From Promethearchaeota archaeon (lineage in GTDB: Archaea; Asgardarchaeota; Lokiarchaeia; Sigyniarchaeales; SOKP01), in contig JAHPZE010000001.1 of NCBI GenBank assembly GCA_019058365.1, forward strand, positions 224,001 to 288,000: a DNA stretch of 64,000 bases. The letters are read 5' to 3'. The translations under genes and the position numbers were made by a program. The notes under the pieces are model-generated. The model was not told where the DNA came from, ran no database searches, and saw only the letters and a list, made by a program, of their open reading frames with translations. This document shows positions 15,497 to 17,683 of the stretch, in pieces (position 1 is the first letter of the stretch; every line of letters begins with the position of its first letter).

Positions 15497-16312
15497 ATGA
15501 AAATAGATTTTCGAGAAGCCAAGAGTATCATAACAAAGAGTAATATTCCCTCAATTGATTATGTAATAAATCCATATACTGGATGTCAACATGGTTGCAT
15601 TTATTGTTATGCTGAATTTATGATAAGATTTACAGGTCATAAAGGAGATAAATGGGGACAGTTTTTAGATATAAAAAGTTTCGATTTGAATAAAATTAAA
15701 CCTCAGAAATATAATGGAAAAATAATTTTATTAAGTTCAGTAACAGATCCATACTTACCCTTAGAAAAGAAGTATCAAAATACAAGAAAGATTTTGGAAA
15801 AGCTAGTTGGAACTGAAGCTGAAATTTCAATTCTTACAAAATCGAAATTAGTTGTTCGAGATATTGACCTATTTAAAAAGTTTAAAAATGTTAATGTTGG
15901 TATCTCAATTAGTACTTTAGATGAGAATTTTGCAAGGATTATTGAACGAGCGGCATCAAAACCTTTAGATCGATTAGACGCTATTAAACAAATTTCTGAA
16001 GCTGGTATTGAAACATATACATTTATATCACCCTTTTTTCCAGAAATTACGGATTTTAAAGCAATTATTGAAGAGAGTAGAGAATATTCAAATCGTTTCA
16101 TGTTTGAAAATTTGAATTTTAGACCTCATAATGTGCCTAGAATAATAAAAGTAATAAAAGAATATTATCCAGAATTGGTTTCTAAATATAAAGAAATCCA
16201 AAAAGATCAAGGTTATTGGGATATTCTTGAGAGTGAGATTGAGAATTATTGCGAAAAAAAGAATCTTAATTATGATATTGAATTTCACCATGGAGGCTTT
16301 TCAAAAAGCTAA
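15497..16312 (+). CDS. Radical SAM protein, spore-photoproduct-lyase-like (Rv2578c-type)
   Basis: INPYTGCQHGCIYCYA, SSVTDPY, ILTKS..VVRDIDL. Confidence 0.85.
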   Translation: MKIDFREAKSIITKSNIPSIDYVINPYTGCQHGCIYCYAEFMIRFTGHKGDKWGQFLDIKSFDLNKIKPQKYNGKIILLSSVTDPYLPLEKKYQNTRKILEKLVGTEAEISILTKSKLVVRDIDLFKKFKNVNVGISISTLDENFARIIERAASKPLDRLDAIKQISEAGIETYTFISPFFPEITDFKAIIEESREYSNRFMFENLNFRPHNVPRIIKVIKEYYPELVSKYKEIQKDQGYWDILESEIENYCEKKNLNYDIEFHHGGFSKS

Positions 16313-16375
16313 AATTGTTCGTTATAATATATTTAATTAAGAATCATATATCTTAAAGATAGATATAATCCAAAA

Positions 16376-17683
16376 ATGCCCGAAGATTACCAGATTGCTT
16401 TAAACAAATTAAAAAGAATTTTACCCTTTGTTAATTCAGTTGCATTAATGGATGAAAGAGGCGAATTAGTTTATTCAACAGATAATTGGGATATAAAAGA
16501 AGATATGGTTAATCTAATATCTCTCTGGTCATCTATGAAACGTCAACCTATTGTAATTTCAGGAAAGGAATATTTAGTACGCACTTGTACAAGCGATAGA
16601 TTTGTAGCAAGCTCACCTAAAGGAGAAGGCCATATTGTAGGTGCTAAAGATGATGAGAGGACAATCATTACTCTTATTGAACCAGATGGGATTATTCCTT
16701 TTACTACTATGGAGATAGCTAGAATTTTAGCTTCATTAAAAGAAAAAGAACCTTACTTGGATAAGAGTATACAATTAGGAAAGAAAATCAAATTAATACG
16801 AGATGGATCCTCTAATAGTGAAAAAGTAAAGCAAAATAAACTTAATATTGATGTATTGCCTTTACAAAAACAAGATAAACCAGAATTAGATTTACCTTTC
16901 ACGGCTCGCCTTATGGCTTATTATCGAGCTCAAGAAGCTAAACACGATGATCCGTTAATTTTTGATCCTTTCGCAGAACGCCTCTCGGGTGATTTGAGTC
17001 CGTACTTGAATGATCATATACGGTTCTCTGAAATGGATTATCCGATCGTACGTTCATATTATATTGAAGAAGAGTTATTAACACCTTGGTGTAAAACAAA
17101 AGGAGAATCACAAATAGTAATGTTAGGAGCGGGGTTAGACACACGCGCGTATCGATTCAAACTCCTTCATAAAAATAAGCATACTCTTTTTGAAATCGAT
17201 TTTCCAAAAGTGATTCAATATAAAAATAAAATTTTAAAAGATGAAAAACCCTATTGCGACGTTGTACACTTATCTACTGATCTTTCCAAATCTAAATGGA
17301 TATCAATTTTGTTAAAAAGCGGATTTTCTAAAAATATTCCGACTTTTTGGATATTGGAGGGTCTCGCCTATTATATAGAAAAGCAAGATTTTACCTCTTT
17401 ACTCTTAAAAATAGCGGAGATAAGTATTGAAACCAGTCAGATTTTCACAGACATCATGCAATTATCAAGATGGTACTCTTTTCCATATACTTCAAATGGA
17501 ATTGTAGGTGATCCTTTTTCTAGGCATTTTAAATGGGGTATTGATATGAAAGTAGTTCAATCATTCTTTTCTGAATTTGGTTGGAATGTATCATGTTCTT
17601 TCGCTGACGATCATGATCAAGGTAGAAATGTGGGGCAGAAGGCGATGATTTTTATTCGTGGAGAAAGGGCTTCTAATATGTAG
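16376..17683 (+). CDS. Fusion of an N-terminal profilin-like domain and a C-terminal LCM-family (TIGR00027-like) SAM-dependent methyltransferase
   Basis: N-terminal VALMDERGELVYSTDNWDI...IVISGKEYLV..CTSDRFVASSPKGEGHIVGAK; C-terminal TARLMAYYRAQE, DPFAERL, MLGAGLDTRAYR, FEIDFP, ILEGLAYY. Confidence 0.8.
   Translation: MPEDYQIALNKLKRILPFVNSVALMDERGELVYSTDNWDIKEDMVNLISLWSSMKRQPIVISGKEYLVRTCTSDRFVASSPKGEGHIVGAKDDERTIITLIEPDGIIPFTTMEIARILASLKEKEPYLDKSIQLGKKIKLIRDGSSNSEKVKQNKLNIDVLPLQKQDKPELDLPFTARLMAYYRAQEAKHDDPLIFDPFAERLSGDLSPYLNDHIRFSEMDYPIVRSYYIEEELLTPWCKTKGESQIVMLGAGLDTRAYRFKLLHKNKHTLFEIDFPKVIQYKNKILKDEKPYCDVVHLSTDLSKSKWISILLKSGFSKNIPTFWILEGLAYYIEKQDFTSLLLKIAEISIETSQIFTDIMQLSRWYSFPYTSNGIVGDPFSRHFKWGIDMKVVQSFFSEFGWNVSCSFADDHDQGRNVGQKAMIFIRGERASNM

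Follow-up and report, generated by a model that had tools for sequence, protein, structure and literature searches.

Within a 64,000-nucleotide stretch of a Promethearchaeota archaeon genome (contig JAHPZE010000001.1; hereafter the window), one open reading frame joins a profilin-like domain to an enzyme of the leucine carboxyl methyltransferase (LCM) family. This raises the questions of whether such a fusion is genuine, from where its two halves were recruited, and what a fold associated with actin regulation may be doing on a methyltransferase.

A conserved fusion gene in Loki-type Asgard archaea

The 435-residue protein is encoded in a single reading frame with no internal stop (Table 1) in a source genome of 4.7 Mb and 29.5% GC. 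In the full-length predicted model, two confident domains are separated by a linker (residues 123-171) with pLDDT <50, and the overall pTM is 0.61. Across the fusion family, the distance from E113 to T176, which brackets this linker, ranges from 41 to 68 aa (a 27-residue spread) with a mean identity of 19%. The domain boundaries placed at about 16745 and 16892 in an initial annotation of the locus are correct to a few bases.

Table 1. Features of the fusion gene (window coordinates)
Feature	Position	Strand	Remarks
Fusion gene: profilin-fold domain, flexible linker, LCM/TIGR00027 methyltransferase	16376..17683	+	435-aa ORF
Profilin-fold domain without Loki-loop	16376..16741	+	aa 1-122; likely from the 'profilin + helical tail' paralog family
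Arg69, fusion-specific	16580..16582	+	R in 57/64; mostly Leu/Ile in tail, TrmB, Ras and stand-alone profilins
Motif E102, D104, G105, I107, E113 at start of C-terminal helix	16679..16714	+	aa 102-113; family-conserved
Lys-x-Pro-Tyr-Leu/Met-Asp segment	16742..16762	+	aa 123-129; common to tail, TrmB and Sir2 fusions
Variable charged linker, predicted disordered	16763..16888	+	aa 130-171
Class I SAM-dependent methyltransferase, Asgard clade of LCM/TIGR00027	16889..17671	+	aa 172-432; D275, E328 invariant
SAM-binding glycine motif	17126..17146	+	aa 251-257
Lid after strand 5, with fusion-specific Ser-Arg-Trp (SRW) insert (aa 364-366)	17453..17518	+	aa 360-381

In the likely source sequencing run, the whole stretch lies within one contig with 0 differences, which does not constitute independent support. 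A contig from a second sample of the same study (16358-16996) spans the domain junction and is identical, and a salt-marsh run from a different study yielded a contig covering 16515-17800 with 82 differences and no gaps. In total, 72 distinct fusion sequences were recovered, about 70 clusters aligning over the full length at 44-90% identity, and dN/dS amounts to 0.29-0.45 in the N-domain, compared with 0.17-0.21 in the methyltransferase; both domains are under purifying selection, the N-domain being constrained less than the enzyme. That the fusion arose in assembly or gene calling, or that its N-domain is a neutral passenger, would be compatible with the patchy distribution, with the occurrence of broken copies in three relatives, and with the weaker constraint on the N-domain. 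We nevertheless give this explanation next to no credence, given the number and diversity of the fusions, the independent contigs that bridge the junction, the dN/dS values below 0.5, and the invariant residues within the N-domain; its artefact version is already refuted by the 72 distinct sequences together with the junction-spanning contigs from another sample and another study. The profilin-methyltransferase fusion is a real, conserved gene in some Loki-type Asgard archaea, and the concern that it might be unique and unsupported by reads has been dispelled.

Intact copies were found in 16 of 400 Asgard genomes, all of them within the window's class (161 genomes; about 10%): 14 belong to the window's family and one each to two other families, one of these Helarchaeota. 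The 14 genomes of a further family (f2), three of them closed, yielded no intact fusion. The broken copies comprise a fusion pseudogene with one stop and one frameshift (G193:C161:86989-88268; L210) and N-terminally truncated methyltransferases in two relatives (L211 and L212, in G028 and G013). Across 17 fusion loci no conserved operon was detected, synteny being restricted to the genus and the neighbourhoods being mostly metabolic, and none of these loci has an actin gene nearby. A co-oriented radical SAM gene lies upstream of the fusion (15497-16312, +); it is nearest to TIGR04470/Rv2578c-like proteins, albeit below cut-offs, and its linkage to the fusion does not extend beyond the genus. 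A sigma-70 promoter scan remained at chance level, and its model is not applicable to archaea. The fusion is an accessory gene outside the core cytoskeleton. Database names for the fusion proteins refer to the methyltransferase only, and full-text literature searches returned no description of the architecture, as had been surmised at the outset, although supplements may mention it.

Descent and reuse of the profilin-fold domain

A phmmer search of the PDB with the N-domain retrieved profilins from Odin (5ZZA, E 1.3e-9), Loki (5YED/5ZZB), and Thor (7PBH) and no other entry up to E 10, and profile searches against four Asgard profilins gave E 3.4e-10 to 1.3e-6. An AlphaFold model of the domain alone (pLDDT 88.5) matches Loki profilin-1 with Z 17.5 and an rmsd of 1.9 Å over 124 residues, followed by Odin profilin (Z 17.4), yeast profilin (Z 14.9), roadblock (Z 12.8), and GAF (Z 9.0), and Foldseek agrees. 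These structural scores rule out roadblock, longin, GAF, or PAS as the identity of the domain and uphold the profilin-like assignment of the initial annotation. The Pfam Profilin model (PF00235) does not match the query and matches 7 of 52 family members weakly (E<=0.1, best E 2.1e-5); other Asgard profilin-like domains that were checked likewise fall under its cut-off. With the solved Asgard profilins (5ZZA from Odin, 5YED/5YEE and 5ZZB for Loki profilin-1 and -2, 7PBH from Thor, and 6YRR from Heimdall), the fused domain has in common the fold (Z 17-18, rmsd ~2 Å) as well as the Asn-Trp, Gly-x-Lys-Tyr strand, Asp/Glu-Arg, and Gly-His motifs at ~20-26% identity. It differs from them in being joined to an enzyme, in lacking the Loki-loop, and in its altered actin-equivalent face (R69, P108). 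In the roadblock/longin modules on Asgard small GTPases, a related alpha-beta-alpha fold likewise serves as a mobile module, and the subfamily of the fused domain also occurs on Ras-type GTPases, but the domain scores clearly higher as a profilin than as roadblock.

At least seven profilin-like genes are present in the source genome, including the canonical Loki profilin-1/2 ortholog (C37:87795-88193), from which the fused domain is separated at the level of clades and by the absence of the Loki-loop. In a careful domain tree (midpoint-rooted, P0216 omitted as a long branch), the fused profilin domains form one clade (support 100/99) that is nested in a group with 200-210-aa 'profilin + helical tail' proteins (support 89/95). 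The latter are present in nearly every searched genome of the family and have a Pro-Tyr linker motif in common with the fusion; the segment at aa 123-129 would mark descent from this subfamily, and the fused domain probably stems from this tail-type family. A tail-type profilin of the source genome is encoded at C35:120061-120693. Two such proteins, each consisting of a profilin domain, a linker, and a 60-aa helical tail, are encoded at L038:6062-6694 (+) and L039:5446-6138 (-), and the single tail-type representative scanned (P0124) had no Pfam match.

Domains of the tail subfamily are also found on TrmB-type regulators, Ras-type GTPases, and Sir2, and more distantly related profilin-like domains are joined to leucine-rich repeats (LRRs), zinc ribbons, coiled coils, and multiple winged helices, so that the profilin fold is a mobile module in this lineage. 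The statement that Asgard profilins are usually stand-alone, with which the initial annotation had introduced the locus, fails for this subfamily. Individual examples include four small GTPases of the Ras/Rab type that carry a profilin-like domain from the tail subfamily at their C-terminus (P0138, P0146, P0196, and P0217) and nine further fusions (P0210, P0221, P0222, P0230, P0243, P0249, P0171, P0242, and P0241) to LRRs, long coiled coils, winged helices, zinc ribbons, or a proteasome-ATPase OB domain. In P0133 (L207:6001-7227), a profilin domain of the same subfamily is combined with a Sir2 deacylase, the sirtuin cluster being inserted into a ribosomal-protein operon; this fusion was not found in the 161 class genomes and is probably lineage-limited. 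Furthermore, a 416-aa profilin-TrmB winged-helix fusion is located directly downstream of a second actin gene that is 84% identical to Lokiactin (L037:6347-7597 (-) and L037:7879-8880 (-), corresponding to G000:C34:310346-312999), and this adjacency recurs in G027 and G031, i.e., in three genomes in all. Profilin-TrmB is a possible actin-sensing transcription regulator; a paralog without the profilin domain is encoded at L037:1616-2527. Strict co-occurrence of the methyltransferase fusion with the profilin-TrmB/second-actin cassette was rejected, as many genomes carry one alone.

The methyltransferase and its lid

The enzymatic part exceeds the cut-offs of both PF04072 (LCM; residues 179-346, E 1.5e-33, 116.7 vs. 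22.3) and TIGR00027 (residues 176-408, 148.7 vs. 93.55 bits), and its methyltransferase residues are intact (G251, G253, the acidic D275 after strand 2, the Asp-Leu pair D302-L303, E328, R226, and Y333), in line with the intact in-frame LCM/TIGR00027-type enzyme originally annotated. R226 aligns to R81 of PPM1 and Y333 to Y203 of LCMT1, and both are invariant in 64/64 fusions. For TYW4, a conserved Arg and Tyr at the equivalent places were proposed to position the substrate carboxylate, and LCM enzymes are known to methylate a C-terminal carboxylate (PMC2685095). Because R226 and Y333 match this proposed pair, carboxyl methylation, which yields a methyl ester, is likely to be the chemistry of the fusion enzyme.

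In structure comparisons, ML2640c (2UYQ/2CKD) and Rv0731c (6ID6) are the best matches (Z 25.5-26, 25-28% identity, same SAM-binding motifs), ahead of LCMT1, PPM1, and TYW4 (Z 20-23), and sequence profiles likewise favour ML2640c (E 2.7e-19) over LCMT1 (E 6e-10). The enzyme is of the prokaryotic TIGR00027 type and is nearer to mycobacterial ML2640c than to LCMT1/PPM1; these nearest solved relatives are themselves labelled 'putative' methyltransferases. Membership of the family does not imply a protein substrate, since TcmP, a bacterial LCM-family enzyme, methylates a small-molecule carboxyl group. Compared with other TIGR00027 proteins, the enzyme belongs to a distinct Asgard clade with 50-65% identity within and ~30% to the only two bacterial loci returned, and the fusion additionally features the N-terminal profilin domain, the SRW lid, and a clade-specific C-terminal motif (aa 410-426). 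Eukaryotic LCMT1 and PPM1 belong to the same superfamily (Z 21-23) and conserve the carboxylate-positioning Arg and Tyr, but are just 14-17% identical to the fusion enzyme, and LCMT1 has no profilin domain. The analogy to LCMT1 and its substrate PP2A that had initially been drawn is accordingly a loose one: the superfamily relationship stands, whereas the enzyme is of TIGR00027 type and the best of 14 PF00149 metallophosphatase matches in the source genome (the only one read) ends in Leu without the PP2A-type TPDYFL tail. A further relative, TYW4, combines an LCM domain with a Kelch propeller and illustrates how the specificity of an LCM-family catalytic domain can be shaped by a fused interaction domain; its accessory fold differs, however, is rigidly packed, and serves a tRNA substrate, and there is no sign of RNA binding in the fusion.

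The Asgard methyltransferase clade occurs in three architectures, namely alone, with an unnamed ~155-aa helical domain at either end, or with profilin. The helical-domain fusions are found in Hodar, Hermod, Thor, Odin, Jord, and Borr lineages, and about 50 other Asgard genomes carry the clade without any profilin domain. The helical domain (e.g., L035:8001-9389, P0097) is found in 38/400 Asgard genomes, in nearly all cases attached to one or the other end of a methyltransferase of this clade; it has no match in Pfam, PDB, or Atlas, which is not proof of a new fold, and homology to the helical tail of the 200-aa profilins was rejected (hhalign probability 1.8%). The SRW lid insert is present in 72/72 profilin fusions and in 0/73 other clade enzymes (50 helical-domain and 23 stand-alone), and the profilin fusions form one methyltransferase clade (SH-like 99); nested inside it are five proteins that carry SRW but in which no profilin domain was detected, and two or more of these are truncated. 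This fusion-specific insert suggests a changed substrate, and its low pLDDT (<50) in the apo model would fit a poorly ordered, substrate-contacting lid. A three-motif scan of 185,579 GTDB species returned the clade only in archaeal records (Asgard where named), save two weak bacterial matches and one record with a doubtful label. The latter, DATKTP010000204.1 (L028/L167), carries the fusion under the NCBI label 'Candidatus Deferrimicrobium'; its coordinates match G057, a genome placed in the window's archaeal class, and the label is probably wrong.

Actin, docking, and competing functional readings

Whether the fused domain still reads actin can be approached via its residues and its rate of change. 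It retains R75, G85-H86, and D104-G105, and the aa 102-113 motif, which occupies the site where other profilins contact actin, differs from the sequence of the actin-binding Loki and Odin profilins. By sequence register with human profilin, rather than from coordinates, we take I73, R74, H119, G121, and N124 of human profilin to correspond to R69, T70, I106, P108, and T111 of the fusion, which would place Arg69 on the actin-equivalent face. These five human residues are contacted by F375 of actin through its ring and C-terminus (PMC5423778). At position 108, the fusion has Pro where Loki and Odin profilins have Arg. The equivalents of the lysines at issue for poly-proline or PIP2 binding in Loki (K60/K71) and Odin (K58) profilins (PMC8410842) are Glu65 and Phe76 in the query, Lys being found at position 65 in 38/64 members. 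Neither Loki nor Odin profilin binds poly-proline (PMC8410842). Relative to its orthologs in G027/G200/G268/G274, the fused domain is 78/46/51/37% identical, compared with 98/76/78/78% for canonical Loki profilin, 62-98% for the tail-type profilin domain, and 59-82% for the enzyme domain across the same genomes; for Lokiactin, identity within the family amounts to 96-100%. Part of the gap between fused and canonical profilin could be due to gene transfer, because the enzyme domain is also just 59-82% identical.

The initial annotation had suggested targeting to actin, phospholipid, or poly-proline ligands as a possible role. Taken together, the residues and the divergence rates speak rather against actin binding of the canonical profilin kind. 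An actin link is possible for the fusion but is weakened because the domain stems from the tail-type paralog family and not from Loki profilin-1/2, because the face equivalent to the actin-binding one has been remodelled and the domain as a whole changes faster than canonical profilin does, and because other Asgard classes have the methyltransferase clade by itself or with a different accessory domain. The remodelled face itself probably binds something, given its own conserved set (R69, E102, D104, G105, I107, and E113), of which R69 and E113 are retained, along with SRW, even in the very divergent P0216.

The explanation that we tentatively prefer, while rating it somewhat short of an even chance, is that a tethered profilin-fold protein-docking module directs carboxyl methylation of a protein partner; that this partner is actin or an actin paralog seems rather unlikely. 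According to this proposal, an Asgard methyltransferase, alone or with a helical accessory domain, would have been joined once, in the Lokiarchaeia/Helarchaeales class, to a profilin domain of the tail paralog, and the SRW lid would have been gained within the fusion clade. A single origin is shown by the support for both domain clades and by the strict distribution of SRW. The profilin domain would bind a protein partner via its remodelled sheet/C-helix face (R69, E102-E113), flexible leash and docking would raise the local concentration of the enzyme, and the latter would methylate a carboxylate (free C-terminus or acidic side chain) on the docked partner or a neighbour. A tether fits the disordered, length-variable linker and the pTM of 0.61, and docking is supported by the reuse of the same subfamily on regulators and enzymes and by the profilin-TrmB gene adjoining the second actin gene in three genomes. 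The proposal is weakened by neighbourhoods that are not conserved beyond the genus and by the enzyme clade's existence without a profilin domain in about 50 other Asgard genomes.

A narrower version of this docking proposal holds that the profilin domain captures G-Lokiactin and that the enzyme methyl-esterifies the C-terminal Phe carboxylate of actin, thereby tuning profilin binding or polymerisation. The source genome's Lokiactin (G000:C39:111968-113110) and its paralog indeed end in Cys-Phe as eukaryotic actin does, the contacts of F375 with profilin (PMC5423778) would put the C-terminus near an LCM-type enzyme, for which a C-terminal carboxylate is the target (PMC2685095), an Arg was gained at the position presumably equivalent to human I73, and Odin profilin, also without the Loki-loop, was crystallised with actin (5ZZA). 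Yet we consider this version very improbable: the fused domain is just 37-78% identical where canonical profilin is 76-98% and Lokiactin 96-100%, the substitutions at positions 108 (Arg to Pro) and 65 (Lys to Glu in the query) affect the relevant face, none of the 17 loci neighbours an actin gene, just ~10% of class genomes carry the gene, some in broken form, and a bound profilin would presumably cover the very C-terminus to be presented. The source genome has six actin-family genes (G000 contigs C39, C34, C29, C16, C12, and C40), two of which have the Cys-Phe end.

Sensor domains are usual N-terminal to TrmB-type winged helices, and roadblock/longin domains are usual beside Ras GTPases. As the profilin subfamily is found in just these two contexts, the fused domain might instead be a sensor or regulatory module for a small ligand, lipid, or nucleotide state that controls a small-molecule carboxyl O-methyltransferase. 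The prokaryotic TIGR00027 type of the enzyme and a patchy distribution with unconserved, mostly metabolic neighbourhoods, typical of accessory metabolic genes, point in the same direction. We nevertheless regard this alternative as unlikely, as the fold is clearly that of a profilin rather than of GAF or roadblock, the family-specific conserved residues appear to map to the flat protein-binding face and not to a pocket, and the long free linker offers no obvious allosteric path. Conceivably, the N-domain could also fold back on its own or a partner subunit's lid and reshape the substrate pocket as Kelch does in TYW4, in which case no external profilin ligand would be needed. This would account for the appearance of the SRW insert and the remodelled face (R69, E102-E113) in the same clade and for their persistence together, and has the TYW4 precedent within the LCM family (PMC2685095); it is quite improbable, since the two domains are not confidently packed against each other in the full-length model (pTM 0.61; pLDDT <50 in linker and lid) and the linker length varies by 27 residues.

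In the published view, Asgard profilins are small stand-alone actin regulators, whereas one Lokiarchaeia profilin paralog has become a mobile module that is found on a methyltransferase, on transcription regulators and small GTPases, and on a sirtuin. Should this module still read actin, protein modification and signalling would be coupled to the cytoskeleton in a prokaryotic cell; otherwise, the evidence for Asgard actin regulation that comes from counting 'profilins' would be inflated. If actin is indeed methylated at its C-terminus, Asgard archaea would control their cytoskeleton post-translationally with the chemistry that in eukaryotes acts on PP2A, and the fusion would be an actin-modifying enzyme of a prokaryote. 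Being small and probably soluble, the fusion protein is directly testable. It may also lead to a substrate for the TIGR00027 family, in which the nearest members of known structure continue to be labelled 'putative'.
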